Of a DNA stretch of 64,000 bases, positions 5,641 to 36,584 are shown piece after piece. A program made the translations under genes and the position numbers. The notes beneath the pieces were generated by a model. It did not search any database, was not told the DNA's origin, and saw only the letters and a list, made by a program, of their open reading frames with translations. The stretch comes from Candidatus Taylorbacteria bacterium RIFCSPHIGHO2_02_FULL_46_13. Its GTDB lineage: Bacteria; Patescibacteriota; Minisyncoccia; Phycocordibacterales; DSPV01. Each line of letters opens with the position of its first letter. The first letter of the stretch is position 1. Location: the NCBI GenBank assembly GCA_001821015.1, contig MHRQ01000020.1, forward strand, positions 44,977 through 108,976, in the 5' to 3' direction.

Positions 5641-5644
5641 TTGT

Positions 5645-9581: not shown

Positions 9582-9596
9582 TACAGTTTTTCTCGT

Positions 9597-10169: not shown

Positions 10170-10173
10170 CGAA

Positions 10174-14305: not shown

Positions 14306-14306
14306 A

Positions 14307-15886: not shown

Positions 15887-15893
15887 ATATTTT

Positions 15894-17759: not shown

Positions 17760-17763
17760 TGGG

Positions 17764-19839: not shown

Positions 19840-19871
19840 ACGCCCGTTCTCCGCACGTGTCTTTTTTGAGT

Positions 19872-20441: not shown

Positions 20442-21463
20442 AGTAATTGTTTAGTTTTTATTTTTTTCAACAGGGGCGACAAGATTGTTTTTACTAATCT
20501 GCGGCCTGGGTAGTATATTGAGTTGTTAAAAAATTGTTCGCTGTTCTGCTTGAATCCGGGCCGTACTATTACTCCATACTGCCAGTCAGGTTCTACCGTT
20601 CTTACGCTCTCAAGCATTTGGTAGAGGCATTGTGCATAGGGTTTGTACATGAGATCTTTCGCAGGCGATGAGCGTGTATACTCACGAAACGTTTGTGGCC
20701 CATAGGGCAGAATCATTGATCTCGGGTATAGTCCAAAGCCTGAAAAATGGAAGAATACAAGCTTGTCTGGGCCCACATACACCTCTTTTTCTTTCGTGTA
20801 GATGGGCATTCCCTGAATGTTCCATGGTGCCACATTTGCCCCTCGGTTTTTTAATATATACACGCCCTTGAATTTCTCTTCAAAATAATCAAGATACCCT
20901 TGGTCGTCATAGTGTCCAGGTCTTTCCGTGTCGTCACAGTATAAGTTACATTGCATACGCCACCAATGGAGGCACTCAAGCGCGTATGTGTCATTTCGAA
21001 AGATGAGCATGCCAACATTGTATGTACCCACCTCTTTTTCTTTTGCTTTACGTGTAGCCACAAGATTGTGTGGAATTATCATAATGGAATGAGCTCCCAT
21101 TTCTTTGTAAATAATTTCTGGTGAAGAAAAGAAATATAAATCAGCATCAAGATAGGTAATATGTTCAACATTTTTGTAGGTGAGGATATAAAGCGGGAGG
21201 GAGGGGGAGATGGTAAAGAAGTATTTTCTTTGACTACGAGTTTTTTTAATTTCTTTCAACTCGTCATCTTCAAATTCTTTTAGCGTTATCAACTGAACGT
21301 TTTGCAAACGTAATTTTTCAAGTGTCTGGTAGGTGAGGTCATCCATGCACAAAATCCAGAGGGTAAATTTTCCTATGTGTGTACTCAAAGAGTGATGAAG
21401 AGCCAAGCCTTTTATAAGAAAGCCTTTATCAAAAAGCGTACAAAAATTGAGATGTGCATTCAT
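20438..21463 (-). CDS. Putative GT-A nucleotide-diphospho-sugar transferase-like protein
   Basis: YLDADLYFF (DxD) and YDDQGYLDYF motifs. Weak family-level guess. Confidence 0.4.
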   Translation of the reverse strand: MNAHLNFCTLFDKGFLIKGLALHHSLSTHIGKFTLWILCMDDLTYQTLEKLRLQNVQLITLKEFEDDELKEIKKTRSQRKYFFTISPSLPLYILTYKNVEHITYLDADLYFFSSPEIIYKEMGAHSIMIIPHNLVATRKAKEKEVGTYNVGMLIFRNDTYALECLHWWRMQCNLYCDDTERPGHYDDQGYLDYFEEKFKGVYILKNRGANVAPWNIQGMPIYTKEKEVYVGPDKLVFFHFSGFGLYPRSMILPYGPQTFREYTRSSPAKDLMYKPYAQCLYQMLESVRTVEPDWQYGVIVRPGFKQNSEQFFNNSIYYPGRRLVKTILSPLLKKIKTKQLL

Positions 21464-22428
21464 TGTTGTAGAATCCCTTTTAACATCTTTTTTGTGGTAT
21501 GTAGTACCCTCAATATCTTTCCAGCAACACGATTGTAGCGATATCGTTGATTGACGAGCTTTTTGCTTTCAGCGGCGAGTTCTTGGAACAGAGGGTCATT
21601 AAATAAGGCGCTTCCTCTTTCTGCAATCTCAAGAGCGAACCCGTCTTGTCTTTTCAATGTGGCAAAAATCCACATCAGTAAATATTCTCGAATGGTAAAG
21701 CTTTTGTCAGTCATTTCATTTACAAATGACATTTCTATCCAGCCCGGAGCTTCAGAGGTCGCAGTACTCAGTGCTCTGTTTTCTGATGCGGAGAGTGATT
21801 TTTTTATCTCATTCTTTAGGCGTCTGACACCCATCACTCTCATAGTAGTCATCCAAAAAGGCATCTTTTCCATATACCGCAAAACCTGCCAAGCCTTGTC
21901 TTCACCATGGTACGCGTCAATAATCCCGGGTTCAAAGTCAGCCACCATCACTGTATAGGCGAGCGACCCTATGCTCTGGAAAAGACTTAAATCGGTTCCC
22001 TGTGAGTCAGTTTTGAACCAATCAATCCTATCAAGCTTGATTTCGGAGAGCACGTCGTTTATATTTTCAGCCTTACGCGTGACTCTTTTTTCTACTTCAA
22101 ACCGTGGACCTATGATCCAGTGCGCAGTTTTTTCGGTATCTGGTTTCAAGGTGCTTGAACAGAAAGGTGAGGCGGTAAGATAAAAGTCAGCTGTTTTTTC
22201 TTTACCAGGGATAACAACTGAATCGCGAATGTAGAGCTCTTTGAAAGGGGAAGTGTTTTCGGTAAGGTGTTTCATTTCTCGGCTATCGGGATCAAAGGCA
22301 ATACAAATGGAATAGGGAGCGATTTCTTTCCAAGGGCCATATACTTCTCCCGACGCTCCAATATCAAGCAACACAGGCGGTCTCGCTCTCAATTCATTTC
22401 TATTGAGTATGGTTTGAATGATGTTCAT
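21460..22428 (-). CDS. FkbM-family SAM-dependent methyltransferase
   Basis: VLLDIGASGEVYGPW and IDWFKTDSQGTDLSLF resemble FkbM motifs (DxGAxxG; KiDvEGxE). Confidence 0.5.
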   Translation of the reverse strand: MNIIQTILNRNELRARPPVLLDIGASGEVYGPWKEIAPYSICIAFDPDSREMKHLTENTSPFKELYIRDSVVIPGKEKTADFYLTASPFCSSTLKPDTEKTAHWIIGPRFEVEKRVTRKAENINDVLSEIKLDRIDWFKTDSQGTDLSLFQSIGSLAYTVMVADFEPGIIDAYHGEDKAWQVLRYMEKMPFWMTTMRVMGVRRLKNEIKKSLSASENRALSTATSEAPGWIEMSFVNEMTDKSFTIREYLLMWIFATLKRQDGFALEIAERGSALFNDPLFQELAAESKKLVNQRYRYNRVAGKILRVLHTTKKMLKGILQQ

Positions 22429-23252
22429 TTTATTTTAAATATAAAACCTTTGTCAGTTGCGGTTTCTTTACCAAGGTTGATATCTCCGGCGAGTGCTTTC
22501 CAATCGGCAACTATTTCATAGTCTGACGTAAAGAAACGAAGAAACTTTCTTTCATTAAGAAACCGCGCAGGATAGCTTGCATCATAGACTTTTGGTGAAG
22601 ATTTTTGAATCGTAATGCGGTCTGGTGTATTTCCTGTAAAGAAAGGGGTTCTATCCACAATAATGTATTGCGGGCGCAACTCTTTGATTGTATGCAGGAG
22701 GTCGTACGGTTTTTCAAGATATGGAAGCACGCTCGAAAGCAGTATCACCTGTGGGTGTACTACAGCAGCGCAATTTTTTAAGTCATCATAAAATTTCAAA
22801 TGTTCATCAGCGAGGTGTTGGTTTCCGAATTGGACGAAATGTTTCTGCTCAACGATACTCCAGGTAAGAGGTCTCACGTGTGAGAGGAAGTTTTTGTTTT
22901 GGTAATAACTGGAACCTAATGATCCTCCAATATCAATGGCGCTTAAGGTGTTTTCATTCACACTGGCAATCCACAGTAGTCCCGCAAGCACAGGCCATGA
23001 ATATTCTATGTGATCAAAATTAACCGAGTCGCGTTCAAAGGCGGCTTCACCATGTTTGACTCTTAGTGCCGCATTTTTCACTTTCTCCAGAATGAGAGGT
23101 GTATCATAGCCAGTGGTTAGGGTTCGTGCCTCGCTCCATGTCTTGTAGTCCCCGCTGTATTGTTTGGGTTGCGGATGTGCAATAGAATGAGCCATATCCC
23201 AGATTATTGGAGGTGTCATCGCCTTTATGATTTTTAATGGATATCGTTTCAT
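22425..23252 (-). CDS. Putative SAM-dependent methyltransferase (uncharacterised family common in glycan/flagellin-glycosylation clusters)
   Basis: GYDTPLILEKV...GEAAFERDSV...IDIGGSLGSSYYQNK...WSIVEQKHFV pattern. Assignment from motif memory only. Confidence 0.4.
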   Translation of the reverse strand: MKRYPLKIIKAMTPPIIWDMAHSIAHPQPKQYSGDYKTWSEARTLTTGYDTPLILEKVKNAALRVKHGEAAFERDSVNFDHIEYSWPVLAGLLWIASVNENTLSAIDIGGSLGSSYYQNKNFLSHVRPLTWSIVEQKHFVQFGNQHLADEHLKFYDDLKNCAAVVHPQVILLSSVLPYLEKPYDLLHTIKELRPQYIIVDRTPFFTGNTPDRITIQKSSPKVYDASYPARFLNERKFLRFFTSDYEIVADWKALAGDINLGKETATDKGFIFKIK

Positions 23253-24082
23253 TTTTTATTTAATACTTCATCCAGATTTTTGCGAGGGAAAACATCCAAA
23301 AGTCCTCCCCGAGTAGCATTCATAACGAGCACCTCGCGCACAGTTGCATACCGCTTGATTTCTTTGTAGATATTCCAGAGTCTTACATAGGATTCAAATT
23401 CTGTTCCCAGATCGGTACCCCACTGGTTTAGGCCCGTTCGAGTAAGCTCGCTCTCATTTTCGGCGTAAAAATGTCGGTTTTCTCCATAGTGTAATATCCA
23501 GTCATGGTCGCAACCTACTAGATAGATTTCTTTCGCTCCGCTATAGAGTGCTAAGTATATTGCTTGGTGTGCAACTGTCTGTATAAGTGGAATTTGTTTT
23601 GTGTACTCAATAGGACTCTCCGCTGAAATTTGGCTTTGTGAAAACACATAAAAATAAATCCGTTGTTTCTTGAGCAGTTTGAATTCTTGCGACAAGGAGC
23701 GGTCATGTACAGACATCATGACTTTTTGCCCCTCGGGCAGGTGTCTTTCGGCATCCTCCAGCCACGCCTTCATTTGTTCTTTTGTGATCGGAGCATGTGA
23801 TTCTGAAAAGACATGATATTCCGGTTTAATAATCTTAAAATCAGGATGCACAAAGAAATTACTGACGCTAATACAGAATTCTCCCTCTAGTTTCTTAAGG
23901 TCTTGCGTTTTTATTGAGGGGCCGCAGGCGAGAATAAAGCACCGCTTTCCGAGAAACTTGTTTTTAAGCTCGGCGTTTGGTTTGAGTTTCTGTCGGTGGC
24001 GAAGATAGAACAGGTATTTGCGCAGAGCATGTTTCTGTGTTCGGTAGAAATCTGCAAGTTCAATGAACAGTGGCCCAACCAC
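23249..24082 (-). CDS. DUF115/Maf-like (motility-accessory-factor type) putative nonulosonic-acid transferase; start uncertain (possible GTG)
   Basis: FILACGPSI and YLVGCDHDW motifs. Track ORF (to 24286) N-terminus is the translated repeat copy B; no ATG lies between the repeat and the conserved region. Confidence 0.4.
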   Translation of the reverse strand: MVGPLFIELADFYRTQKHALRKYLFYLRHRQKLKPNAELKNKFLGKRCFILACGPSIKTQDLKKLEGEFCISVSNFFVHPDFKIIKPEYHVFSESHAPITKEQMKAWLEDAERHLPEGQKVMMSVHDRSLSQEFKLLKKQRIYFYVFSQSQISAESPIEYTKQIPLIQTVAHQAIYLALYSGAKEIYLVGCDHDWILHYGENRHFYAENESELTRTGLNQWGTDLGTEFESYVRLWNIYKEIKRYATVREVLVMNATRGGLLDVFPRKNLDEVLNKK

Positions 24083-24094
24083 GGTAAGTCTTTT

Positions 24095-24253
24095 TATTGC
24101 CAAGCGAGTGAGTGGAGAGAAAAAGTATCTTCTTTTTCTCTCCCGAGCGAGCGACGGCAACAAAGGGTTTACTACCCCACGGCTTGCCGCGGGTGAGTAC
24201 GCGCACAGCGCGTTTTTCATGCGGGGCTTGCCCCGCGGTATAATACCCTTTAT
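24095..24253. repeat. Hairpin repeat family, copy B (long form)
   Basis: TTATTGCCAAGCGAGTGAGTGGAGAGAAAAAGTATCTTCTTTTTCTCTCCCGAGCGAGCGACGGCAACAAAGGGTTTACTACCCCACGGCTTGCCGCGGG...GGTATAATACCCTTTAT. Confidence 0.85.
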
Positions 24254-24295
24254 AAATCCTCGAATAGTCGGGTTTTTTTCAGTCATGGGGTTTTT

Positions 24296-24988
24296 CTATT
24301 TTTTGTGACATACACCATAAAAACAGGTAGTCAGCACTCCGGTACTCAAGGTTGCTTTGTGGGTGAGTAACTCTACGTTTCCAGCTCCAAAGTGGTCTGT
24401 AAGAAGAGCCAAGAAATCATTTCGCGTGAGCTCGTACTTGTGATACGGATTATGCATGCTGGGGCCGGATTTCCCGGTAGGGTTTTCAGGCGAACTTACA
24501 ATAAGTGTGCCGCCAGGCTTAAGAGCGTTTAAAAAAGCTTTGATAAGTGGCCCTTGGTATTTTGATTCTATGTGTTCAATCCCCTCAATACAGCCGATGA
24601 CGTTAAACTGTGCGGAGGGCAATTCAGGATTTGTTAGATCTCCCGACAAGAACGAAGTTGTCTTATTTCCGTATATCCGACGCGCGTATTCAATCGTAAT
24701 AGCATCGTCATCCATGCCTTTATACACGATTCCAAACGGCGCAAGTATCTCTGCCGCGTATCCGCTCCCGCATGGGAAGTCTAAGACATGGTCGTTGGGG
24801 CGGCAGTAAAAACCCACGAGCGAATACCGTCCTTTATGCCGCACCACTGAATCTTTCATGTCGGCTGACGGGACGTCGCTTTTTTGTACAGAAACATGTG
24901 TGCCGTCAGGCATATCAAATTCAAGGCCTCTAAGGTAGAGTCGTTCGGGGTCAGCCGCAGTCCGTATGATGTTCTCTGTGCGCTTCAT
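24296..24988 (-). CDS. Class I SAM-dependent methyltransferase
   Basis: HVLDFPCGSGYAAEIL (motif I) and LKPGGTLIVS (post-motif II). Confidence 0.65.
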   Translation of the reverse strand: MKRTENIIRTAADPERLYLRGLEFDMPDGTHVSVQKSDVPSADMKDSVVRHKGRYSLVGFYCRPNDHVLDFPCGSGYAAEILAPFGIVYKGMDDDAITIEYARRIYGNKTTSFLSGDLTNPELPSAQFNVIGCIEGIEHIESKYQGPLIKAFLNALKPGGTLIVSSPENPTGKSGPSMHNPYHKYELTRNDFLALLTDHFGAGNVELLTHKATLSTGVLTTCFYGVCHKK

Positions 24989-24995
24989 ACGATAG

Positions 24996-25658
24996 TTATG
25001 GTTTTACAATAAAAGATGGAATATGGCTCCATGGAAATTTCTCAATTCTGACGTTCATTTTCGCAAAGAAATCATCCACAGCCTTTGTCTCCCCGGGGAA
25101 CGTTCCATAGTCGTCAAAGGCGATGATTCCGCCTCTCACCACACGCAGGTAGAGCGTTTCAAGGATTGTTTTGGCTGGTTCATAAATGTCAGTGTCTATA
25201 TGCAGTAAGGCAATTTTGAGGTGGGGATTGTCGCGCAGATAGCGCGGCACGGTCTTTACAACATCGCCGGCTACCAGTTCTACGTTTGTGATTTTTTTCG
25301 CATCAAGGATATGCTCGAGTGCCGTGGTGCTCAACGCTTCGTTGCCGGCACTAGAGACAAAACGTTGCAAGTATTTTTTATCGTCCTTGAATTTTGTTGG
25401 GGGTACTTTGCCAAACGTATCAAATCCGATGATCTTTCGGCTGTGGGGAGTTTCCACTAGATTTCTAAACGTCGCGAATTGAATGAGAGAGTTTCCCTTA
25501 AAAACCCCGCATTCAACGACTGCACCCGGCAGGTCGGCGATTTTCTTATACAACTCATAGTGTGCGAGAATTTTCCCCATACGGTCAATGCCGCTGGTCA
25601 TCATGAATCCATTTTCATATTCAAACACCGAATTATTTTTTACTACGGGTTTTTTCAT
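24996..25658 (-). CDS. TylF/MycF-family sugar O-methyltransferase
   Basis: LPGAVVECGVFKGNSLIQFA ... IIGFDTFGKVPP ... IAFDDYG fits the macrocin-O-methyltransferase family pattern. Confidence 0.65.
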   Translation of the reverse strand: MKKPVVKNNSVFEYENGFMMTSGIDRMGKILAHYELYKKIADLPGAVVECGVFKGNSLIQFATFRNLVETPHSRKIIGFDTFGKVPPTKFKDDKKYLQRFVSSAGNEALSTTALEHILDAKKITNVELVAGDVVKTVPRYLRDNPHLKIALLHIDTDIYEPAKTILETLYLRVVRGGIIAFDDYGTFPGETKAVDDFFAKMNVRIEKFPWSHIPSFIVKP

Positions 25659-26527
25659 TTTGGTTTGTATTTTAATTTCTTTCTTTGTTCTTTTTCGACC
25701 GGAAGAATAGGTTCACGTTTAAAGGAGAGGGAAATGTGCGTAGCATGTAAATTGCGAGCCAGTTTGGATAATCCTTGTGGTTCAAGCGATGCGGCATGGT
25801 CGGTACCTTTCCATGTTCTATTTTTAGTAAAGTGTCGTTCAACCCACACTGCTCCGAGGGTGTATGCCGCTATGTCTATCGCAATGCCATTATGATGTCC
25901 CGAGAACCCGATTTCTTTTACGCGTTCCCCATAGGTTTCCTTTAGCCGTGTTATTTCAAGCAGGCTCACGTCTTTAAAATCAACAGGGTATCCCGACGTA
26001 CATGCATAGAGCACCAGGCGTTTCTTTGCCGCTCCGGTTTTCTCAAAGAAGGCGACGAGCGCTTCTTCTTCTTTCGGCGTTGTCATTCCGACCGACACAT
26101 GGATATCTCCTTTATATGTATCGCGCAAGAGCTCTAGCATCTTGAAATGATTGTTACTTGCGGAAGGGACTTTTATAAATCGGGGATTAAGACGGATTAT
26201 TTCTTTTGCCGATGTTACGTCCCAGACTGATGATGAATATTCAATACCGATTTTTTGAGCATACGTTAGCAGTTTTTCATGGTCTGCGACGCTAAACTCA
26301 AGATATTCGCGATGGGCTCCGTAGGTATTTCCAAATGAATTTTGCGGGTTTGGATGGGGGGTTTGGTACTGTTTTTTTGTCAGAAGTTCTCTTGGATTTC
26401 TCTTTTGGAATTTGACGACGTCCGCGCCAGAATCTTTTGCAAGCTTAATAAGTTCTTTGGCAATCTCAATATCGCCCATATGGTTGCATCCGATTTCCGC
26501 GATTACGTTAGGTTTTTTGTATTTCAT
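25655..26527 (-). CDS. NeuB-family nonulosonic acid (sialic/pseudaminic/legionaminic-like) synthase, short form without C-terminal SAF domain
   Basis: VIAEIGCNHMGDIEIAKELIKLAKDSGADVVKFQKRNPRELL. 290 aa, shorter than canonical ~340-aa NeuB. Confidence 0.7.
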   Translation of the reverse strand: MKYKKPNVIAEIGCNHMGDIEIAKELIKLAKDSGADVVKFQKRNPRELLTKKQYQTPHPNPQNSFGNTYGAHREYLEFSVADHEKLLTYAQKIGIEYSSSVWDVTSAKEIIRLNPRFIKVPSASNNHFKMLELLRDTYKGDIHVSVGMTTPKEEEALVAFFEKTGAAKKRLVLYACTSGYPVDFKDVSLLEITRLKETYGERVKEIGFSGHHNGIAIDIAAYTLGAVWVERHFTKNRTWKGTDHAASLEPQGLSKLARNLHATHISLSFKREPILPVEKEQRKKLKYKPK

Positions 26528-27198
26528 AACCCTTTAATTTTTTTGAATAGTTCTTCTGCGCCCGCCCAGTCTTCGGGAGTATCAATATCAATTGATTGTT
26601 CAGGTTTCATTTCAAACATGCCGATTGAGCCCCCAAGAAAATTCTTATGATTTTGCAAGGTTGATTTCCTGGTGATGTAGAACGCACCATTCTCGGTGAT
26701 AGTTCCTTCAAAATCTTGCGTTCGGGGCCGTTCGTTCGGGTTGTAATTGAGAGGCTTTCCATTTTTTGTCCAATAGAACCGTTTGTGCAAAGTCCCGGTA
26801 ACTAAGGCGTCATTTTTTTTCTCTTCAAGTGTTTCAATGGCGCGGTCTATGTCGTCTCTCGTAGTGAGGGGGTTGGTTGCGTGCAGGATTACCAATATAT
26901 CAAACGGGACTTGTGTCATGAAGTGTAGGTGGACGAGCTCTTCGGGGGTGGTATCTTGCGCTAGTTCTTTAGGGCGGTGGCTGATCGTAAGATTCAGTCC
27001 TTGTGCGGCCATGGTTTGTTTAATCTTTTCATCTTCTGTAGAGACGTGGATCGCATCAATATATTTTGATTGTTTTGCGGCATGCGCAACCCAATAGGCC
27101 AAAGGTCTTCCGTGGAAGGTTTTAATGTTTTTACCGGGAATCCTTTTTGAATTTCCCCGAAGCGGGATGATCGCGACGACTTTTTTATTATTAATCAT
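26524..27198 (-). CDS. CMP-nonulosonate (acylneuraminate) cytidylyltransferase, NeuA/KdsB family
   Basis: KVVAIIPLRGNSKRIPGKNIKTFHGRPLAYWVAHAA...IDAIHVSTEDEKI. Start set to MINNKK; ATGA-type overlap with neuB-like gene. Confidence 0.7.
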   Translation of the reverse strand: MINNKKVVAIIPLRGNSKRIPGKNIKTFHGRPLAYWVAHAAKQSKYIDAIHVSTEDEKIKQTMAAQGLNLTISHRPKELAQDTTPEELVHLHFMTQVPFDILVILHATNPLTTRDDIDRAIETLEEKKNDALVTGTLHKRFYWTKNGKPLNYNPNERPRTQDFEGTITENGAFYITRKSTLQNHKNFLGGSIGMFEMKPEQSIDIDTPEDWAGAEELFKKIKGL

Positions 27199-28258
27199 GG
27201 TGTTTTTTGATTTGTTTACGGTACATCCATCGGGCCACGTGATAGATACCGGGTAGAGAGCGTAACGTTTCCGCAACAATCTGTGGGACTGCGCGTCGTT
27301 TCATTTCCGGCTTAAGCATTACCCGTTCTGCAACACATGGGGTATCAGCGTTTGCGTTGCAAAAGTCAGCCATAACCGCGAATATATTGTATGTGTTGAG
27401 CGTGAGTTCTCGCGCTATTTTGATCGCTTTAGTCCGCTTTTCATATACATGTTCAATAATCGCTTGTTCAATGATTTCAATTGATTTGTGGGGGTCATCC
27501 ACGTCTACTCTGATAAATGCTTCCGGGCTGTAATATGTTTCTAGATCCGGGCATCCATAGTAGAAGGGGAACGTATGTCCAAGATACACGTCTCCAATTC
27601 CAGTGACATACCCAGGCACATACGCGTTCTCAATCATTACATAGTATTGGTAAGGAGCAATGCCGTCCATTTTATCGCTAATGCGATTGATTCCATTACC
27701 AAATACATCCATCGTATCTTTAAAGTGTTCTTTCAACGCGCTGATGAATGCATGGCGTTTGCGTTGGCCAGGCGCGCGATTTTTTGATGCATTAACAACG
27801 GCAAGAAGCTTTGTTTTTTCTGGCACGCGCATGGTCTTATAGGTATTATACGTGGTGAAATATCTTTTAAAATCTTTCGGGTCTACTCCAGAGCCTGTGC
27901 CGAAATGTCCAACCATCCATGGTGCTACTTGGCGGCGTATAAGGTGTGGGTGGTGTATCTCTGGGTGAGCACTGATAATATACCCAAATTGCTCAATAAA
28001 CTTCCGTGCGTATTTTTTGATGTCCGGGTTTCCTTCTCCCGTCATCAATACCGTGCGGTTTTTTGGTCCGTATGCACGGGTCGGTTTTTCTAAGTTGTTC
28101 CACACGAACCACCAGTCAAACGCTGTTTCAGATTCATCAGTGATAAACTCGCAGTTCCCCCATACTCCCTTGGAACCAGGCGTTTGTCGTAGGTACGGTA
28201 TGTCAGGATACTGACTGCTGAATTTTACTCTTATTTTTTTATGTGTGAGAGTCTCCAT
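27191..28258 (-). CDS. Putative glycosyltransferase with GT10/WecF-like fucosyltransferase C-terminal motif
   Basis: YQYYVMIENAYVPGYVTGIGDVYLGHTFPFYYGCPDLETYYSPEAFIRVDVDDP parallels the GT10 motif (FENS...DYITEK...VPVV.G...AFIHVDDF). Moderate/low. Confidence 0.4.
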   Translation of the reverse strand: METLTHKKIRVKFSSQYPDIPYLRQTPGSKGVWGNCEFITDESETAFDWWFVWNNLEKPTRAYGPKNRTVLMTGEGNPDIKKYARKFIEQFGYIISAHPEIHHPHLIRRQVAPWMVGHFGTGSGVDPKDFKRYFTTYNTYKTMRVPEKTKLLAVVNASKNRAPGQRKRHAFISALKEHFKDTMDVFGNGINRISDKMDGIAPYQYYVMIENAYVPGYVTGIGDVYLGHTFPFYYGCPDLETYYSPEAFIRVDVDDPHKSIEIIEQAIIEHVYEKRTKAIKIARELTLNTYNIFAVMADFCNANADTPCVAERVMLKPEMKRRAVPQIVAETLRSLPGIYHVARWMYRKQIKKHHD

Positions 28259-28261
28259 ACG

Positions 28262-29608: not shown

Positions 29609-29674
29609 ATCGTTTATTTTAAAATTTCAGTGCTACCGTAGCGAAGCGGTCTCTAACGGGATCCATATATTTTT

Positions 29675-30502
29675 CTATACTATATCCGCAAAGATACGTT
29701 CTGTTTTTTTAAAGACAAAAACACCGATAATGAATAGCACGATGCCAATGAGCGCTGATGTTGCCAGCGCTGTCCAGTCAAGCGAGCCTGTGCCTAAAAG
29801 GCCGATGCGCGCGTTATTGATGACTCCGGTCATGGGATTGAGATACAGTATCCATGCATATTTGCCGGCTATGGAGGTAGGGTAAATGACAGGTGTTATG
29901 AAGATGAGTAACTGCAAAAAAAATGGGAGCACGTATCGGACATCGCGATATCGCACATTAATTGATGACAGTATTAATCCAGTACCGACTGCGGGTAAAA
30001 ATGCCAACAGTAACAGTAGCGGTACGAGTAAGACTCCCACAATTGTGGGGAGGATCTGGTAGTACACCATCAGTCCTGCCATAATGAGCGCCGCGAAGGA
30101 GAAATCAACCAACTTGGTTACGGTATCCGCTAGGGGGAGGAGCAGACGCGGAAAGTAGACTTTGGTAACGATTGAAGCATTTGAAATTAGCGTGTTGGAG
30201 CTTTCTGACAGGGAGCTGGTAAAGAATTGCCAGAATAAAAGACCGCTATAGACAAACACCGGATAGGGGACGCCTTCGGAAGGAAGGTGTGCGAGTTTTC
30301 CGAAGATTACGGTAAACACCACCATGGTGATGAATGGTTGGAACACTGCCCACATGATTCCGACGACGGTTTGCTTATAGCGTACTTTAATGTCGCGCCA
30401 TGCAAAAAAGTAGAGTAGTTCTCGATACTCCCACAGCTCTGTAAGGTCAGCGGTACTGAACGATTTCTTCGGTCGGATGATTTTTGTATATACGGTGGAC
30501 AT
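29675..30502 (-). CDS. ABC-2 type polysaccharide export permease (Wzm-like)
   Basis: Six hydrophobic segments; position immediately downstream of Wzt-like ATPase. Confidence 0.75.
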   Translation of the reverse strand: MSTVYTKIIRPKKSFSTADLTELWEYRELLYFFAWRDIKVRYKQTVVGIMWAVFQPFITMVVFTVIFGKLAHLPSEGVPYPVFVYSGLLFWQFFTSSLSESSNTLISNASIVTKVYFPRLLLPLADTVTKLVDFSFAALIMAGLMVYYQILPTIVGVLLVPLLLLLAFLPAVGTGLILSSINVRYRDVRYVLPFFLQLLIFITPVIYPTSIAGKYAWILYLNPMTGVINNARIGLLGTGSLDWTALATSALIGIVLFIIGVFVFKKTERIFADIV

Positions 30503-30510
30503 GGCAGTGC

Positions 30511-31608
30511 TTATTTTTTAATCTGCGTGAGGTCATGGTGTACCATTCGTTTGACGAGTTGCTCAAATGAAATTTCTGGCTTCCAACCGAGTTCGCGGCG
30601 AGCTTTATTCGCATTTCCCCGCAGAGACCGTACTTCGTTGGGGCGAAAATATTTTAAATCAATAACCACGCGAGTCTTTTTTGTTTTAGCGTCAATGCCA
30701 CGCTCGGTGAGCCCCCTACCTTTCCAGATAAGTTTGACCTCGGCTTCTTTAAATGCGCGTTCACAGAACTCACGGACACTGTGTTTTCTGCCAGTGGCGA
30801 TGACGTAGTCTTTGGGTGTTTTCTGTTGGAGCATCAAATGCATTGCACGCACAAAGTCTTCAGCGTGCCCCCAATCACGCTCTGCATCAAGGTTGCCGAG
30901 CCGGATGTGCTCGCGTTTACCGGCAAGAATCTCCGCAATGCCGATGGTAATCTTGCGTGTGACGAAATTCTCACCCCGGCGCTCGCTTTCATGGTTGAAA
31001 AGGATCCCGTTCACGATGAACATCTCGTATGACTCTCTATAGATACGACCAATGTGGTAGGCGTATAATTTTGCCGCTCCATACGGACTGCGCGGTTGAA
31101 AAGGCGTTTCTTCATTGAGTTCCGAGACGTTTATGTCACCGGGGAACATTTCAGAGGTTGATGCTTGGTAGATCTTTGCGGGTAATTTCAAATGTCTCAC
31201 TGCTTCCAATATATTTAAAAGTCCGATCGCGTCGGCGTGTGCCGTGTAGACCGGTTTTTCAAATGAAACCTGAACGTGACTTTGTGCTGCGAGGTTGTAT
31301 ATCTCGTCGGGTCTGACTGCCGCGATAGTAGAAAGCATTGAGATGGGGTCCGTGAGATCGCCATAGTGCAATTTCAAATTGCCTGGATTAACGTAATCGT
31401 AAATATGTTCAATTCGTTGGTGGTTGAACGTAGAGGCACGGCGAACAATACCATGTACCTCGTACCCTTTTTCCAAAAGATGTTCCGCAAGATAAGATCC
31501 ATCTTGTCCCGTGATGCCGGTGATAATGGCCTTTTTTCGTTTAGCGCGGTTTCCCGTTCGCTTTGTTTTTTTGTATTTTTTTGGCATGAGTTCTCTTTCT
31601 ATAATCAC
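30511..31608 (-). CDS. gmd: GDP-mannose 4,6-dehydratase
   Basis: KAIITGITGQDGSYLAEHLLEKGYEVHGIVRRASTFNHQRIEHIY closely matches the conserved Gmd N-terminus. Lys-rich N-terminal extension suggests true start may be internal. Confidence 0.85.
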   Translation of the reverse strand: MIIERELMPKKYKKTKRTGNRAKRKKAIITGITGQDGSYLAEHLLEKGYEVHGIVRRASTFNHQRIEHIYDYVNPGNLKLHYGDLTDPISMLSTIAAVRPDEIYNLAAQSHVQVSFEKPVYTAHADAIGLLNILEAVRHLKLPAKIYQASTSEMFPGDINVSELNEETPFQPRSPYGAAKLYAYHIGRIYRESYEMFIVNGILFNHESERRGENFVTRKITIGIAEILAGKREHIRLGNLDAERDWGHAEDFVRAMHLMLQQKTPKDYVIATGRKHSVREFCERAFKEAEVKLIWKGRGLTERGIDAKTKKTRVVIDLKYFRPNEVRSLRGNANKARRELGWKPEISFEQLVKRMVHHDLTQIKK

Positions 31609-31621
31609 TATAAGGTGATAA

Positions 31622-31870: not shown

Positions 31871-31876
31871 AACCCT

Positions 31877-31905
31877 AGTATAGGGCAGGTGTCAAAAGGT
31901 GTCAA
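31877..31905 (-). promoter_or_regulatory. Sigma70-like promoter (TTGACA-N17-TATACT, minus strand) with duplicated TTGACACC box, 6 nt upstream of the HTH gene start codon (leaderless-type transcript)
   Basis: Minus strand reads CCTAC TTGACA CCTTTTGACACCTGCCC TATACT AGGGTT ATG. Plus strand shows GGTGTCAA at 31888..31895 and 31898..31905. Confidence 0.45.
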
Positions 31906-32058
31906 GTAGGTTCACATCTATAGAGACACATGATTAAGTATCAGTCAATTATTTTTTTCGTGTTTTCTTTATTGGGTGTGGTAGGGTGTATTCGGACAAA
32001 CAGTTTCCCACGCGGATGCGTGACTTTAAACTGTGTTTGAACTTTAACAAGGAGTGTT

Positions 32059-33054
32059 ATGTTGAATAAAATTATACCTTTCAAGCGCGTGCTGATCACG
32101 GGCATCTCTGGGTCTGGCGGCAGTTATCTCGCCGAGTACATAGTCCAGAATCATCCGGAGGTTGAAATTCACGGATTGTCACGCTGGCACAGCACGACAA
32201 ACCATGACAATCTGCATGCGGTACGTGATCGTGTAGTCATACACGAATGTGATTTGCTGGACTCTTTATCCATCTTAGCTGCGCTTGAGAAGAGCCAGCC
32301 TGACGCCATTTTTCATTTGGCCTCGCACGCCAATGTTCGTGCCTCGTTTCAGACACCGGTGGCTGTCTTGGAAAATAATATTCTCGGTACCGTCAACCTA
32401 TTTGAGGCAGTTCGTTCCGTCGGTGTCCTGCCGCGGTTCTTGCTGTGTAGCAGTTCGGAAGTGTACGGCCAGGTAAGCCGGGAGAATGGACCGATTAACG
32501 AGGATACGCGTATACGCCCCGTGAGTCCCTATGCCGTTTCAAAAGCGACACAGGACATGTTGGGATACTACTACTTCGTTGCCTACAAGATTCCCGTTAT
32601 CATCACTCGCATGTATGCATATCTGAATATGCTACGTGCCGACCTATTTGCTACCGCTTTTGCGCGACAGATTGCCCGCATAGAGCTTGGTTTGCAAAAG
32701 GAGCTTGTGCATGGGAATCTTGACTCCATTCGGACCATCATTGACGTGCGCGATGCGATGCGCGCATACTGGGAAGCACTACTTCACTGTGAGCCTGGCG
32801 AGGCTTACAACATCGGAGGCGATACGGTGAAATCAGTGCGCGAAGTGTTGAATGACCTGGTATCGTTAGCTAAGGTTCCTATACCGATGCGTGAGGAACA
32901 AACGCTTCTGCGTCCGGCTGACGTTACTAATCAAATCCCGAACACAAAGAAATTTCGGGACGCGACGGGCTGGAAGCCGCACTACTCTTTCCAAGAGAGT
33001 CTCACGGACTTGCTCGCGCACGTTCGTACTGAAGTTGCAAAGGAAGAACGGTAG
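32059..33054 (+). CDS. Gmd-paralogous NAD(P)-dependent reductase/dehydratase, Rmd-like (possible GDP-4-keto-6-deoxy-D-mannose reductase)
   Basis: RVLITGISGSGGSYLAEYIV..., PVSPYAVSKATQDML (YxxxK), FARQIARIELGLQKELVHGNLDSIRTIIDVRD. Architecture resembles Rmd rather than Fcl; from memory. Confidence 0.5.
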   Translation: MLNKIIPFKRVLITGISGSGGSYLAEYIVQNHPEVEIHGLSRWHSTTNHDNLHAVRDRVVIHECDLLDSLSILAALEKSQPDAIFHLASHANVRASFQTPVAVLENNILGTVNLFEAVRSVGVLPRFLLCSSSEVYGQVSRENGPINEDTRIRPVSPYAVSKATQDMLGYYYFVAYKIPVIITRMYAYLNMLRADLFATAFARQIARIELGLQKELVHGNLDSIRTIIDVRDAMRAYWEALLHCEPGEAYNIGGDTVKSVREVLNDLVSLAKVPIPMREEQTLLRPADVTNQIPNTKKFRDATGWKPHYSFQESLTDLLAHVRTEVAKEER

Positions 33055-33060
33055 ATTGAA

Positions 33061-33088
33061 GGGTGGACACCAAGTCCACCCTTTTTTA
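33061..33088 (+). terminator. Rho-independent terminator (GGGTGGAC-ACCAA-GTCCACCC + T6)
   Basis: Perfect 8-bp GC-rich stem followed by TTTTTT directly after stop of 32059..33054. Confidence 0.65.
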
Positions 33089-33174
33089 ATGCGTGCGACA
33101 TGGTGATGGAGAGTTTAGAAACAAACTCCCTCTTGTCCTACCCCGCACCTCTGGCGCGGGTCAAGACGAGTACT

Positions 33175-33696
33175 TTACGGGTCCAAGACTCCGCCCTGCG
33201 GTTTAATACTCTTTATTTTTTCAATAATCTTTGTGGTTGAAATTGCTTCAAACTCCGGTGGGCAAGCTCGCTCAAGTATAACGAGCTTTGTTGGAGAACT
33301 TTTCAGCAGTTCACGTCGCTTCGGTATATCAAATGCGTCGGTAGTGATGACGTAGTAATCTGGCTTAAGCGTGCTGAACACTGAATTGAGTCCACTTAAA
33401 AGGTCCGTACTGAGAAGATTTTGATCAAGAAGAGCGTACGTCACTGATTTTATAGAGGAAACCATCTTAAGCCGTATATGTTGGTTTAAAACAGGGCGTT
33501 CCGCTCCTTTATATATGCGCAAAATGGAATCATTTCCGACCATTACGACAAGAATATCGCCGTATTTTTTACAATCTTCAAAGAAAAGAACATGGCCGGC
33601 ATGTGTCAGGTCAAAGCTACCAGAGCAAAATACAATCTTCTCATCCTTATGTTTCTCTCTGATAGAAGAGAGCTCTTTACCATCAATGATACTCAT
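33175..33696 (-). CDS. Cytidylyltransferase-like nucleotidyltransferase (HxGH family; glycerol-3-P cytidylyltransferase/RfaE-domain-II-like)
   Basis: KIVFCSGSFDLTHAGHVLFFEDCKKYGDILVVMVGND. Start set to internal Met MSIIDG; track ORF to 33777. Confidence 0.6.
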   Translation of the reverse strand: MSIIDGKELSSIREKHKDEKIVFCSGSFDLTHAGHVLFFEDCKKYGDILVVMVGNDSILRIYKGAERPVLNQHIRLKMVSSIKSVTYALLDQNLLSTDLLSGLNSVFSTLKPDYYVITTDAFDIPKRRELLKSSPTKLVILERACPPEFEAISTTKIIEKIKSIKPQGGVLDP

Positions 33697-33933
33697 GATA
33701 GGTATGTAGTATAGGACAGGCGGGCCTTCTTTAAAAGAGTGTGTGAAAATAATTGCAGGTATGCTTTTGTATAACACGACCGCGCGAGAAAGTCTTCTCT
33801 GTCTGTAGTGCGCAGGGATTTGACTGTGGGTTGCAAGAAATGGTAGGTTGACTCCAGATTTGCATGTTGTTGTGCAACATTAGATTGATGGTTCAACTAA
33901 CACACCAACGATAACTACCCAACAAAAAGGTGG

Positions 33934-34491
33934 ATGATGAAAATCCGAAAAGCACACGAGGTGAAAACTATTCTGGAGAGAAGGGACCAGAAGGTTTTTG
34001 AACAGTTGTTTACGCTTGAAGATGGTAGCTCGTATAACCCTCTTATGTATGGCGTTACGTTAGAGAACTATCCTGTTCTCATTATGCCTGTTACGAAAGA
34101 TAAACAGGTAATCGTGCTCAAGCAGTTTCGGTATGCAGCAGAAAAGGTGATACTGGAATTTCCAGGAGGGTGGCCAAAATCAGGAGAAACACCCCAGCAA
34201 GCTCTTCGCTCCGAGCTCGTTGAAGAGTCGGGGTATAAAGCGGGAAGGGTGATCCAGTTAACCAAAAAGCTTTGGTTTGAACCCGCGCACACTCGAGTGT
34301 TCTATGTTCCATTTCTTGCGTTGGACTGCGTGTTAGAAAGAAATCCGAAACCTGACCGATTGGAACACATTGAGGTGCTCAAGATTCCCCTTGATACGTG
34401 GATTGCCATGATTCAGAACGGGGAAGTTGAAGACGACAAGAGCATCGCCATCACCTTTCTGGCACTGACGCATTTGAAAGGTGCGGTCTAA
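33934..34491 (+). CDS. NUDIX hydrolase (position next to gmd/rmd-like genes suggests a GDP-sugar hydrolase such as GDP-mannose mannosyl hydrolase)
   Basis: Nudix box GGWPKSGETPQQALRSELVEESGY. Confidence 0.65.
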   Translation: MMKIRKAHEVKTILERRDQKVFEQLFTLEDGSSYNPLMYGVTLENYPVLIMPVTKDKQVIVLKQFRYAAEKVILEFPGGWPKSGETPQQALRSELVEESGYKAGRVIQLTKKLWFEPAHTRVFYVPFLALDCVLERNPKPDRLEHIEVLKIPLDTWIAMIQNGEVEDDKSIAITFLALTHLKGAV

Positions 34492-34496
34492 AGTTA

Positions 34497-34533
34497 AATC
34501 TTGCAGCGAAACAAAGCTGCAAGATTTTTTATT
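34497..34533 (+). terminator. Rho-independent terminator (AAATCTTGCAGC-GAAACAA-GCTGCAAGATTT + TTTATT)
   Basis: 12-bp perfect stem immediately after the NUDIX gene stop. Confidence 0.6.
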
Positions 34534-34839
34534 GCCGAGGAGAACAGCAACAAAAGGTTGAGGAGCGAATGCGTAGCGCTCCGAAAGACATGGTGATGTA
34601 GTTTTGAATCTTTGACGAAAAAACTAGCCACAAGGTGTAGTGAGCCTGTACGGTTTAATATTCTTTATTTCTTTCCAATACTTACGTGTAGATTTGTACG
34701 CCATTCATCAGCATGGTATAGTCGCACCAGATTCACTAATGCTAATGACTTGTTCATATGGTTTTGCGTGCGCAGATGCGACATGTAAACGGGAATGAAT
34801 CCTATATGAAAGCACATTGACACTCAAAGAAAGGTTAGT

Positions 34840-36381
34840 ATGCAGCCTAGAAAACTTGACGTATTGTTCGTTAATCCTGACTCATCTTTCAAGGCGTATC
34901 AGGCATTAAGCAAAGATTTTTCGGCAATAGAGCCGCCCACGTGGGCGTTACTGTTAGCCCAGAGTTGTCGGGCCAAAGGTTTTGGTGTCGGTATTTTGGA
35001 CTGTGGTGCCGAACGACTGGGCATTAATGATTCAATTGAACGCATTATTGGCGCAGACCCACGATTAGTCTGTTTTGTGGTGTACGGTCAAAACCCGAAT
35101 TCTGGCACTACAAATATGGCCGGTGCGCACGATTTGTGTGCACAGCTAAAGGAACAGTATCCTCAATATGTCACCTGCTTCGTAGGTTCTCACACCAGTG
35201 CCTTGCCTAAAGAAGTGCTGGCGTGGGATTGCGTAGATTTCGTTCTCTTGAATGAAGGTGTCTATGCACTTCATAACGTGCTCCAAACAGATCTGAAAGA
35301 ACATATTGAGCAGGTTAAGGGCATCGGCTACAAAAAGCAGGGTGTCTTGATCTTGAATCCCCCCGAGCGTGTCGTGCCGCAAGATCGGATGGACGTAGAC
35401 CTGCCGGGGTATGCGTGGGATCTTCTTCCGTATCGTGAAAAACCTCTTGACTTGTATCGGTCGCATTTCTGGCATGCGGAGTTCAATCATGAACTTCGTA
35501 CTCCATTCGTTGCACTCTACACGGGACTTGGGTGCAAGTTCAAATGTGACTTCTGCATGGTTAACATTGTCAACCGTGTTGATAATACTGACGGAGTTGT
35601 CGCTTCTCACTCACCGACCGTGCGCTTCTGGTCGCCAGAGTTTATGATTGGAGAATTTGAGAAACTTGCTGAACTGGGGGTCAAGACGGTCAGGATTTCA
35701 GACGAAATGTTTTTCCTTAATCGGAAATTCTTTGAACCGTTGTTGAATCTGGTTGTGGAACGCGGTTTCAAATTCCGCATGTGGGCGTACTCTCGCATAG
35801 ATACTGTTCAACCACAGCATTTAGATCTGTTTAAACGCGCGGGTATTAATTGGCTCGCACTTGGAATTGAGGCTGCCAATCTGGTCATCCGACAAGAAGT
35901 CTCCAAGGGTTCTTTCAAGGATATGAGCATCCGCAAAGTAGTAAGCGAGATTGGTCGGCATGACATGAATATAATTGCCAATTATATTTTCGGTCTTCCT
36001 GACGACAGTCTTAAAACGATGCAAGAAACACTGGACTTATCCTTGGAGTTGAATACTGAAACCGCAAACATGTTTCCTTGTCAGGGCTTGCCTGGTAGCG
36101 CGCTGTACTACCTCGCGAAAAGCAACGGGTGGGCCTTGCCGGATTCTTATGCCGGGTATGCATTTCTTTCTTATGAGAGCCAACCGTTGCCTACGAAATA
36201 TTGTACGGCGGCAGAAGTGCTCCGTTTTCGGGATGATGCGTGGAAAAAATACTTCTCTAATCCTGCGTATCTCAGCCTTGTGGAACGCAAATTCGGTGCC
36301 AACCAACGACGCAACGTTGAGGCTATGTCAAAAATCAAGCTTCGTCGCAAGCTTCTCGGTGATCCGCCTCCAGGGCCGTAG
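34840..36381 (+). CDS. B12-binding (class B) radical SAM enzyme, probable methyltransferase
   Basis: N-terminal cobalamin-binding-like region (LDVLFVNPDS...VGILDCG) and radical SAM cluster motif GCKFKCDFC (Cx3Cx2C). Confidence 0.7.
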   Translation: MQPRKLDVLFVNPDSSFKAYQALSKDFSAIEPPTWALLLAQSCRAKGFGVGILDCGAERLGINDSIERIIGADPRLVCFVVYGQNPNSGTTNMAGAHDLCAQLKEQYPQYVTCFVGSHTSALPKEVLAWDCVDFVLLNEGVYALHNVLQTDLKEHIEQVKGIGYKKQGVLILNPPERVVPQDRMDVDLPGYAWDLLPYREKPLDLYRSHFWHAEFNHELRTPFVALYTGLGCKFKCDFCMVNIVNRVDNTDGVVASHSPTVRFWSPEFMIGEFEKLAELGVKTVRISDEMFFLNRKFFEPLLNLVVERGFKFRMWAYSRIDTVQPQHLDLFKRAGINWLALGIEAANLVIRQEVSKGSFKDMSIRKVVSEIGRHDMNIIANYIFGLPDDSLKTMQETLDLSLELNTETANMFPCQGLPGSALYYLAKSNGWALPDSYAGYAFLSYESQPLPTKYCTAAEVLRFRDDAWKKYFSNPAYLSLVERKFGANQRRNVEAMSKIKLRRKLLGDPPPGP

Positions 36382-36488: not shown

Positions 36489-36584
36489 GCACTATTCAAT
36501 GAGCCGCGTGATCCACATCGCGCGGCTTTTTTGTGTTCGTATAACCCGGTGTTCCTTGCTTACTAGATATGTTTTGGTATAGTA

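Follow-up and report, generated by a model that had tools for sequence, protein, structure and literature searches.

A modular surface-glycan island in Candidatus Taylorbacteria and its uncharacterised radical SAM family

Methyl transfer is the reaction of most characterised B12-radical S-adenosylmethionine (SAM) enzymes, among them GenK and GenD1, which act on sugars, while HpnJ and BchE are listed as non-methylating (PMC12931638). AprD4, the 1,2-diol dehydratase of the apramycin pathway, is placed by sequence-similarity networks among the B12-radical SAM enzymes and has a domain remotely like a Rossmann fold, but it binds no cobalamin (PMC12931638). For branched sugars, a 3,6-dideoxy-4-keto sugar combined with a thiamine-dependent carboligase is a known route (PMC9306805). 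Here we describe a stretch of 64,000 nucleotides, in the following called the window, from Candidatus Taylorbacteria bacterium RIFCSPHIGHO2_02_FULL_46_13 (contig MHRQ01000020.1, positions 44,977 to 108,976). It encodes a radical SAM protein with an N-terminal B12-binding-type Rossmann domain (34840..36381, plus strand; 513 aa; NCBI OHA26515.1) together with several methyltransferases. An earlier analysis made from the DNA letters alone, here called the sequence-only reading, assumed a small-genome host, and the host is indeed a member of the candidate phyla radiation (CPR). The radical SAM, MurB, SecA and PyrD proteins match those of a Candidatus Taylorbacteria metagenome-assembled genome (Parcubacteria/CPR) exactly or almost exactly. 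The locus is of an ordinary kind, an ABC-transporter-dependent glycan cluster for the cell surface; the radical SAM family is uncharacterised, and its conserved module is apparently undescribed.

The glycan island spans at least 49 kb, including 10 kb of glycan genes to the left of window position 1. A single long run of glycan genes occupies 12256-31608 on the minus strand, and a second run is found at 36-11193 on the plus strand. Identical DNA was found again in aquifer metagenome assemblies. The explanation that we favour, with fairly good confidence, is that the island is modular and that the methyltransferases are distributed over its modules rather than forming one tailoring battery. Its modules are also seen in the flagellin glycosylation islands of Campylobacterota, in pathways for amino-deoxyhexoses and in colitose/dideoxyheptose-like pathways.

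Six methyltransferase-like open reading frames (ORFs) had been listed by the sequence-only reading, and all of them are present with exactly the coordinates it gave. Five score above curated profile cut-offs, and none of the six was reassigned by the profile searches to a non-methyltransferase family. The first is a 540-aa FkbM-domain protein (36..1658, plus strand), where the FkbM domain is C-terminal (aa ~359-498; PF05050 38.1 bits, cut-off 22.7; TIGR01444 64.7 bits, cut-off 37.7) and the N-terminal 350 aa (36-1085) have no significant Pfam or NCBIfam match. The second (21460..22428, minus strand) is a divergent FkbM-like candidate of the class I fold, which scores below the FkbM cut-offs (PF05050 21.1 bits vs 22.7; TIGR01444 22.6 vs 37.7) and gave no match in a PDB sequence search. 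It contains a motif-I-like stretch, LLDIGASGE, and 37 of 40 homologs match PF05050 (E<=0.01). Its AlphaFold (AF2) model has a mean predicted local distance difference test (pLDDT) score of 93.5, and the top 50 fold matches are all SAM-dependent class I methyltransferases, albeit weak ones (E 1e-4, TM ~0.3), the best being the sugar C3-methyltransferases TcaB9 and KijD1. Judged from its homologs and the model, this ORF is a probable divergent methyltransferase. The remaining ones, apart from the radical SAM protein, are a TIGR04325 (LIC12133) family methyltransferase (22425..23252, minus strand; 206 bits vs cut-off 80, no Pfam match), a class I methyltransferase (24296..24988, minus strand; Methyltransf_23 47.4, _25 41.3 and _11 40.5 bits, each above cut-off) and a TylF-type O-methyltransferase (24996..25658, minus strand; PF05711 69.5 bits vs cut-off 23). 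The last has homologs that are 60-70% identical in many phyla, under NCBI names related to TylF/MycF/NovP.

When it comes to the density of these genes, six of the approximately 37 genes in the first 36.4 kb are methyltransferase-like, against none of about 25 in the remaining window (Fisher p = 0.038). The binomial probability of the count is 9e-5 with an assumed background share of 2%. The enrichment is genuine but modest; it is a functional clustering in a glycan locus, and the same genes are found together in related loci. The density is thus explained by the modular nature of the locus. The heavily methylated, carbamoylated glycan that had been predicted is supported in so far as this is a sugar-polymer locus with two NodU/CmcH-type carbamoyltransferases. 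Heavy methylation does not follow from methyltransferase density alone, because the transporter ATPase Wzt may read some of the methyl groups, or a methylated ulosonic acid, as chain-end caps.

The radical SAM gene was originally counted with the methyltransferase block, but this did not hold. It lies about 10 kb from that block and is a gene of its own between two terminator-like hairpins, one in the gap to the preceding NUDIX gene (34496..34527, plus strand; a 12-bp stem and a T-run) and one after the radical SAM gene (36501..36528, plus strand; a 12-bp stem with seven GC pairs and a T-run), and it belongs to a distinct, conserved nucleotide-sugar module. It would accordingly be its own transcription unit, in a module shared with a nucleotidyltransferase and a NUDIX hydrolase. 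The former is RfaE-domain-II-like (33175..33777, minus strand; CTP_transf_like 54.3 bits, rfaE_dom_II 73.6 bits) and the latter is encoded at 33934..34491 on the plus strand (NUDIX 39.3 bits). In other CPR loci, genes near the radical SAM gene encode proteins 55-56% (nucleotidyltransferase) and 31-38% (NUDIX) identical to those of the window. Upstream is a GDP-sugar short-chain dehydrogenase/reductase (SDR) related to GDP-heptose 4,6-dehydratase and GDP-6-deoxy-4-hexulose reductase (Rmd) (32059..33054, plus strand; PDB 7us5 189 bits, 2pk3 181.5 bits). In tblastn searches it is 53-70% identical to SDRs found near radical SAM relatives (loci L032, L063, L077, L080 and L085).

The radical SAM module was surveyed in 80 genomes/loci whose radical SAM proteins are 50-78% identical. 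Their common cassette consists of an SDR, an HddC/ManC-like nucleotidyltransferase, an HddA-like GHMP kinase, a thiamine-dependent E1-like pair, a DegT-family gene and, as the last gene, the radical SAM gene. The E1-like pair comes in short, full-length or split-transketolase forms, and an Fcl-like reductase and a flavin adenine dinucleotide (FAD) oxidase are sometimes present. The DegT-family gene is adjacent to the radical SAM gene in 64 of the 80 genomes, and in 47 loci it lies on the same strand and ends no more than 400 bp before the start of the latter. In the PDB it matches ColD best (174 bits), the Lys-to-His motif FSFY[YF]AHH is found in 62 of 67 loci, and a ColD-type partner is present in 62 of the 80 related loci. 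By sequence, the DegT-family partner in the relatives is a ColD-type pyridoxamine phosphate (PMP) 3-dehydratase and not an aminotransferase. The order varies between hosts. In other CPR genomes the genes for the ColD-like protein, the GHMP kinase and the SDR are divergent from the radical SAM gene, after which CTP_transf_like, NUDIX, a short E1 pair and a family 2 glycosyltransferase (GT2) are found. One CPR locus also encodes a SIS isomerase (SIS_2) and a histidine phosphatase (His_Phos_1), which indicates a heptose-type activation route. Plasmid AZO_p6 of Azospirillum lipoferum 4B has the order Fcl, radical SAM, kinase, NUDIX and no ColD, while pDMC1 of Solidesulfovibrio magneticus has two GT2 genes followed by radical SAM, NUDIX, kinase, E1 alpha, E1 beta, Fcl, His-type DegT, SDR and nucleotidyltransferase.

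The window retains the core of nucleotidyltransferase, NUDIX and radical SAM gene, the GDP-sugar SDR and a full E1 pair, and its kinase is of the PfkB type rather than the GHMP type. The thiamine-diphosphate E1 alpha/beta pair is full-length (5645..6604 and 6555..7637, plus strand; E1_dh 223 bits, Transket_pyr, Transketolase_C). It is 40-44% identical to E1 pairs found upstream of the radical SAM gene, with only a ColD-like gene between, in four related loci (L012, L016, L029 and L031), and 36-39% identical to the pair on S. magneticus pDMC1. The next gene encodes an RfaE-domain-I-like PfkB sugar kinase (7634..8377, plus strand; profile match). The E1 pair, the sugar kinase and the GDP-sugar SDR are located elsewhere in the island and may belong to the radical SAM module. 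With the pathways for colitose, the 3,6-dideoxyheptose of C. jejuni and yersiniose-type sugars, the radical SAM loci share, in the relatives, the ColD-type dehydratase, an Fcl/ColC-like reductase, heptose-type kinase, isomerase and nucleotidyltransferase, and a thiamine-dependent enzyme. They differ in that the known thiamine enzymes of the branched-sugar pathways are of the YerE type, whereas those of the radical SAM loci are of the E1 alpha/beta type, and the window lacks a ColD-like gene. To our knowledge, no known pathway for colitose, dideoxyheptose or yersiniose has a radical SAM enzyme.

The radical SAM family is unusually conserved. None of the best 120 database clusters falls below 69% identity to the window protein, and 343 clusters at 50% identity reach E<=1e-30 when scored against every library protein without a word index. 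Among relatives surveyed in one-genome-per-species data, those of Verrucomicrobiota and Planctomycetota are 65-78% identical and that of an OM43-type betaproteobacterium 66%, while the proteins of Pelagibacteraceae (SAR11), Gammaproteobacteria and Deltaproteobacteria are about 50% identical. Cultured bacteria have homologs that are 37-39% identical, in Azospirillum and Solidesulfovibrio (A. lipoferum 4B WP_014189868.1; A. argentinense; S. magneticus WP_012750628.1). No homolog was found in the phage collection. Limited literature searches found no characterised member and, for O-antigens, nucleotide-sugars, heptoses or Patescibacteria, no relevant work on B12-radical SAM enzymes.

Many of the radical SAM homologs of 640-940 aa carry an intein (Intein_splicing, with a LAGLIDADG or HNH endonuclease; P0252, P0254-P0258 and others). 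The intein of P0257 is inserted within the CxxxCxxC motif ('...GCNFKCNF|CIEEK...THN|CMIN'), with the third cluster ligand as its +1 cysteine, corresponding to window residues ~236-239. In P0254 the intein domain starts about 100 residues further on (~349-358), which means that not all homologs use the P0257 site.

Both domains that had been claimed for the radical SAM protein are found above the Pfam cut-offs, B12-binding (PF02310) with 46.7 bits (cut-off 32.1; residues 30-147) and Radical_SAM (PF04055) with 50.9 bits (cut-off 29.5). The N-terminal B12-binding-type Rossmann domain is supported by profile as well as fold. The CxxxCxxC motif is GCKFKCDFC, residues 231-239, and its cysteines (C232, C236 and C239) are invariant in 35 relatives. 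None of the characterised subfamily models fits, however; all 20 NCBIfam matches are far under their cut-offs, the best being HpnJ with 108 bits vs 578. BchE scored 70, PhpK 68 (of 600), ApyD 55, AprD4 (NF033070) 52.4 (of 500), MJ_0865 39 (of 360) and KedN5 27 (of 700). Among solved structures AprD4 is the best match in both sequence and fold, with 17% identity, though its lead over true B12 enzymes and methylases is marginal, and the model of the radical SAM protein has a pLDDT of 75 and is unreliable around the cluster loop. Cobalamin use therefore does not follow from a match to the B12-binding profile, nor would methylation follow from cobalamin use.

The enzyme most likely functionalises a C-H bond of a nucleotide-activated 6-deoxy hexose or heptose by radical chemistry. 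Cobalamin-dependent C-methylation of a nucleotide-activated deoxy sugar would be the single most likely reaction, at slightly below an even chance; a non-methylating radical reaction, possibly cobalamin-independent, is nearly as likely, and other outcomes share the remaining probability. The sequence-only reading had stated outright that the protein is a class B C-methyltransferase and that it implies cobalamin scavenging. With no match to a characterised subfamily and AprD4 as the best structural match, both statements are to be regarded as hypotheses.

Taken together, that the protein is a cobalamin-dependent class B C-methyltransferase acting at an unactivated sugar carbon, and that the CPR host must scavenge its cobalamin, is plausible but tentative. 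It agrees with the B12-binding domain above cut-off, the Radical_SAM core and the CxxxCxxC motif, with conserved neighbours that are nucleotide-sugar enzymes, and with the prevalence of methylation, GenK and GenD1 included, among characterised B12-radical SAM enzymes (PMC12931638). Against this, the methylase models PhpK, KedN5 and MJ_0865 come nowhere near their cut-offs, the top profile matches HpnJ and BchE are non-methylating, and AprD4, the best match among solved structures, does not bind cobalamin (PMC12931638). Moreover, the 64-kb window contains no cobalamin riboswitch (Rfam), no BtuFCD-type importer and no other B12 gene. A check of the ORFs at 43-57 kb for B12 importers revealed nothing but housekeeping genes and an ABC-2 exporter with a TagD-like cytidylyltransferase. 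Class B radical SAM enzymes in general (GenK, GenD1, Fom3, TsrM, TokK, CysS and MgmA, and the non-methylating BchE, HpnJ and OxsB) are only 13-18% identical to the window protein and, unlike them, its family is found in primary cell-surface glycan loci across phyla and not in antibiotic clusters; cobalamin binding is here a prediction.

It is also possible, at somewhat lower probability, that the protein is a non-methylating sugar enzyme, either an AprD4-like dehydratase/deoxygenase or one that catalyses an HpnJ/OxsB-like rearrangement, that might not need cobalamin, in which case scavenging is not implied. The best NCBIfam match is HpnJ, and the family is found in deoxysugar cassettes with SDR reductases, comparable to AprD4, which works together with AprD3. 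AprD4 is further similar in size, and acts on a sugar within a deoxygenation pathway. However, the scores for the AprD4 and HpnJ models are far below their cut-offs, the structural lead of AprD4 is marginal, and the N-terminal domain of the window protein passes the Pfam threshold for B12-binding. The probable substrates are nucleotide-sugars and not aminoglycosides, and after 4,6- and 3-dehydratase steps there would presumably be little vicinal diol left for an AprD4-type reaction.

Two further ideas were abandoned. An erwiniose-type scheme, in which terminal C-methylation of a heptose would give a 3,6,8-trideoxy-4-C-branched octose, is contradicted by the finding that the side chains of erwiniose and caryophyllose come from YerE-type thiamine enzymes with longer keto-acid donors (PMC9306805). 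The presence of the family in SAR11 and OM43 was considered as a sign of cobalamin independence, but the distribution does not discriminate, because SAR11 is treated as a B12 auxotroph (PMC9296465).

The other methyltransferases belong to other modules. Comparative context was used to sort METHYLTRANSFERASE by module, and it places the TylF-type and the class I enzymes in a cassette with NeuB, a CMP-synthetase, a phosphatase and MptE. In the window, this cassette consists of an MptE-like/Maf-type putative transferase (23249..24286, minus strand; 345 aa; Pfam, NCBIfam, synteny), the two methyltransferases, a NeuB-family synthase of 290 aa (25655..26527, minus strand; NeuB 217.6 bits) with no SAF domain match in Pfam, and a CMP-sugar synthetase (26524..27279, minus strand; CTP_transf_3 95.5 bits). 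The start (TTG) of the CMP-synthetase ORF looks too far upstream, since it gives an 89-bp overlap with the GT10-like gene; public gene calls have 224 aa, and the gene is probably 26524-27198. A KdsC/KDN-9-P-phosphatase-like HAD protein, whose gene is the synteny partner of the cassette elsewhere, is encoded at 9597..10169 on the plus strand (profiles). It is 31-32% identical to the HAD half of an Aliarcobacter CMP-synthetase fusion and 51% identical to the HAD protein of the CPR locus L136.

In Aliarcobacter cryaerophilus the gene order is mannose-P-isomerase/CBS, NeuB (293 aa), TylF, class I methyltransferase, CTP_transf_3 fused to HAD, and a Maf_flag10_N/MptE-like gene, and three flagellin genes come after this cassette. 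The window proteins are 62-64% (NeuB), 61% (TylF) and 41-42% (CMP-synthetase) identical to those of A. cryaerophilus. In L136 the order is a helix-turn-helix gene, GMD, Wzm, Wzt, GT10, methyltransferase, NeuB, TylF, MptE-like, CMP-synthetase and HAD, with an FkbM-like gene further on. This synteny with A. cryaerophilus and L136 indicates that the TylF-type and class I enzymes are thus part of a conserved cassette predicted to make, methylate, CMP-activate and transfer a NeuB-derived ulosonic acid. The product is probably a methylated Kdn-like acid, as there is a dedicated phosphatase and no amino-sugar genes inside the cassette. The NeuB-like synthase, the HAD protein, the CMP-synthetase, both methyltransferases and the MptE/Maf-like transferase would then make and attach an O-methylated Kdn-like ulosonic acid. 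Compared with the flagellin nonulosonic-acid islands of Campylobacterota, the set of NeuB, TylF, class I methyltransferase, CMP-synthetase(/HAD) and MptE/Maf and its order are the same as in A. cryaerophilus, with 41-64% identity. However, the window cassette lies beside an ABC glycan exporter and not beside flagellins, the MptE-like protein of 345 aa lacks Maf_flag10_N, and the NeuB protein lacks SAF and is below the equivalog cut-offs.

The TIGR04325 and FkbM-like methyltransferases group with an amino-deoxyhexose module, as shown by their neighbours in metagenome loci. Among 39 such loci, the genes downstream of TIGR04325 genes were FkbM-like in 11, GT8-like in 14, a DegT aminotransferase in 9 and FdtA in 6. 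The module of the window, of the 3-amino-3,6-dideoxyhexose type, contains an SDR (17764..18723), a Lys-type sugar aminotransferase (18724..20043; DegT 390 bits; motif FSFYPTKN), an FdtA 3,4-ketoisomerase (20028..20441; FdtA 119 bits) and a weak GT8-like transferase (20438..21463; GT8 21.5 bits, below cut-off), all on the minus strand. The best PDB sequence matches of the aminotransferase are 7b0d (377 bits) and QdtB (333 bits). The start of its ORF looks too far upstream, with about 75-90 surplus N-terminal residues relative to the PDB homologs. FdtA, the aminotransferase and the GT8-like transferase, together with the two methyltransferases, would make and attach a methylated 3-amino-3,6-dideoxyhexose.

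Next to this module is the first NodU/CmcH-type carbamoyltransferase gene (15894..17759, minus strand; Pfam), and the second is located at 1797..3560 on the plus strand (Carbam_trans_C 224 bits, Carbam_trans_N 140 bits; its NodU profile score of 138 bits is under the equivalog cut-off). The two carbamoyltransferases and the FkbM-domain protein may contribute additional decorations. The minus-strand run further encodes a GT2 (12256..13284; Pfam), a GT11 of the alpha-1,2-fucosyltransferase type (13451..14305; Pfam) and two proteins without family assignment (14307..15356 and 15353..15943). The gene order of 12256-17759 is kept in L087, a related Taylorbacteria-like CPR contig (SecA 72% identical).

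The polymer would be exported by a Wzm/Wzt ABC transporter, composed of a 448-aa Wzt ATPase (28262..29608, minus strand; ABC_tran 86.8 bits) with a C-terminal extension of about 170 aa, and a Wzm ABC-2 permease (29675..30502, minus strand; ABC2_membrane 58.2 bits). Adjacent to these are genes for a GT10-like transferase (27191..28258, minus strand; profile, same order in L136) and a GDP-mannose 4,6-dehydratase (30511..31608, minus strand; TIGR01472 gmd 497.9 bits vs cut-off 415). The latter and the Rmd/heptose-dehydratase-like SDR, with the GT10- and GT11-type transferases, would supply 6-deoxyhexose units. Downstream of the radical SAM gene is a gene for a Wzy_C (O-antigen ligase/polymerase-type) membrane protein fused to TPR repeats (36585..38849, plus strand; Wzy_C 58 bits and many TPR families). 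The loci of E. coli O8/O9a, the P. aeruginosa common polysaccharide antigen and S-layer glycans likewise combine Wzm, a Wzt with a C-terminal extension, gmd with an Rmd-like SDR, glycosyltransferases and methyltransferases in one locus. Unlike those, the window is from a CPR host, presumably without an outer membrane, it has no recognised WbdD-type terminator and its Wzt_C match is below threshold, and ulosonic-acid, aminodeoxyhexose, carbamoyl and radical SAM modules are added.

WbdD of E. coli O8/O9a and the methylated D-rhamnan of P. aeruginosa are precedents for caps that control chain length and export. The methylated Kdn-like acid may similarly be a chain-end cap recognised by the Wzt C-terminal extension. 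A more far-reaching version, that several of the methyltransferases are chain terminators rather than general tailoring enzymes, with methyl groups or the methylated ulosonic acid capping the non-reducing end, setting the chain length and licensing Wzt export of a glycan that is then not heavily methylated, is unlikely. It would fit the C-terminal extension of Wzt, which matches Wzt_C (PF14524) weakly (26.1 bits), the ulosonic-acid/methyltransferase block that adjoins wzt, wzm and gmd both in the window and in L136, and the combination of gmd with an Rmd-like SDR, which we take to resemble the P. aeruginosa D-rhamnan locus. But the Wzt_C score is under the cut-off of 30.4, no WbdD-like kinase or coiled-coil protein was recognised in the locus, and the Aliarcobacter cassette is found beside flagellin genes and not beside a polymer exporter.

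Several points weigh against the modular account as we present it. The window and its 10-kb left flank contain no ColD-like partner, GHMP kinase or SIS isomerase. The sole DegT-family gene of the window encodes the Lys-type aminotransferase, 15 kb from the radical SAM gene. The radical SAM module is here incomplete, rearranged or reduced, and may act on a different substrate. As 27 kb separate the E1 pair and the PfkB kinase from the radical SAM gene, their link to it is one that we infer. The ulosonic synthase and synthetase miss the equivalog cut-offs for NeuB, PseI and PseF (192 bits vs 400, 131 vs 340 and 120 vs 206, respectively), and the cut-off for KdsC is likewise missed, so that Kdn-like is a tentative assignment for the ulosonic acid. 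The sub-threshold Wzt_C makes the cap-recognition idea weak. Finally, the horizontal acquisition of the radical SAM module, which is probable because the three CPR radical SAM sequences group together inside a Verrucomicrobiota clade, is read from a neighbour-joining tree that carries no support values.

In L087, MurB and SecA directly abut the run of MptE, TIGR04325, GT8, FdtA, aminotransferase and so on to the carbamoyltransferase, and the window block of 24.3-38.8 kb (class I methyltransferase, NeuB, Wzt/Wzm, GMD, radical SAM gene and Wzy_C-TPR) is lacking. This block, the radical SAM gene included, therefore varies between relatives. It is nevertheless very improbable that the radical SAM gene was merely left over from a transferred cassette and has no role in the glycan here: the ColD-like, GHMP-kinase and SIS partners of other CPR loci are missing, the hairpins isolate the gene transcriptionally and L087 lacks the whole block, but the ORF is intact, the residues invariant in the 35 relatives are all kept in the window protein (by definition), the three cluster cysteines included, the identical protein is found in 19 contigs from several samples, and A. 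lipoferum also has a ColD-less version of the module.

The rest of the window holds some additional features. The plus-strand run includes genes for a Zn-alcohol dehydrogenase (4606..5640; Pfam), a GT4 glycosyltransferase (8415..9581; Pfam) and a CDP-glucose-4,6-dehydratase-like SDR (10141..11193; profile match). Between the two divergent glycan operons, 11390-11959 (plus strand) encodes a protein with a PaaX-middle/Cas2-like domain (PF20803, 67 bits) that may be a regulator. The proteins encoded at 3630-4556 (308 aa) and 14307-15356 (349 aa), both on the minus strand, have no significant Pfam or NCBIfam match, and no RNA genes were found over the window with Rfam (gathering thresholds) and ARAGORN. 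At 51161-53301 (plus strand) an ABC ATPase, an ABC-2 permease and a small TagD-like cytidylyltransferase form another set for polymer export, which suggests a separate teichoic-acid-like polymer. From 57807 to 64000 (plus strand) there is one open frame of more than 2064 codons that runs off the window end, encoding a giant repetitive protein with ten 'GNVGIGTTSP'-type repeats. Its C-terminal 'SSDIRLKTNI' stretch is presumably akin to the intramolecular-chaperone/S74 peptidase domains of tail-fibre-like surface proteins. In the left flank, about 7-9 kb upstream of window position 1, a gene for a 681-aa NDP-sugar dehydratase/epimerase (L130:635-2680) is apparently interrupted by a LAGLIDADG-type insertion (faint Pfam match), which may be a second intein of the island.

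The locus thus holds one worthwhile target for enzymology, the radical SAM family; the rest of it is of known kind. It is conceivable, although less likely than not, that this large and uncharacterised family catalyses a new radical step, for example C-methylation or a rearrangement, with a nucleotide-activated deoxy-hexose or deoxy-heptose as substrate. The step would then be part of a primary cell-surface sugar pathway not described before, in which the radical SAM enzyme works with the kinase, the nucleotidyltransferase, NUDIX, the ColD-type dehydratase and the thiamine-dependent E1 pair. The cultured members allow a direct test of whether a B12-type radical SAM enzyme takes part in primary cell-surface sugar biosynthesis, and of the reaction it catalyses. 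Cobalamin dependence, and hence cofactor scavenging, should not be deduced from a B12-binding profile match alone. Should the enzyme need cobalamin, CPR and other streamlined bacteria would rely on scavenged B12 to make their surface glycans. A CPR bacterium with a very small genome devotes at least 49 kb to a complex surface glycan, probably with methyl and carbamoyl groups, in an island built from modules common to distant phyla, and this is relevant to the surface that episymbiotic or ultra-small bacteria expose to hosts and phages.

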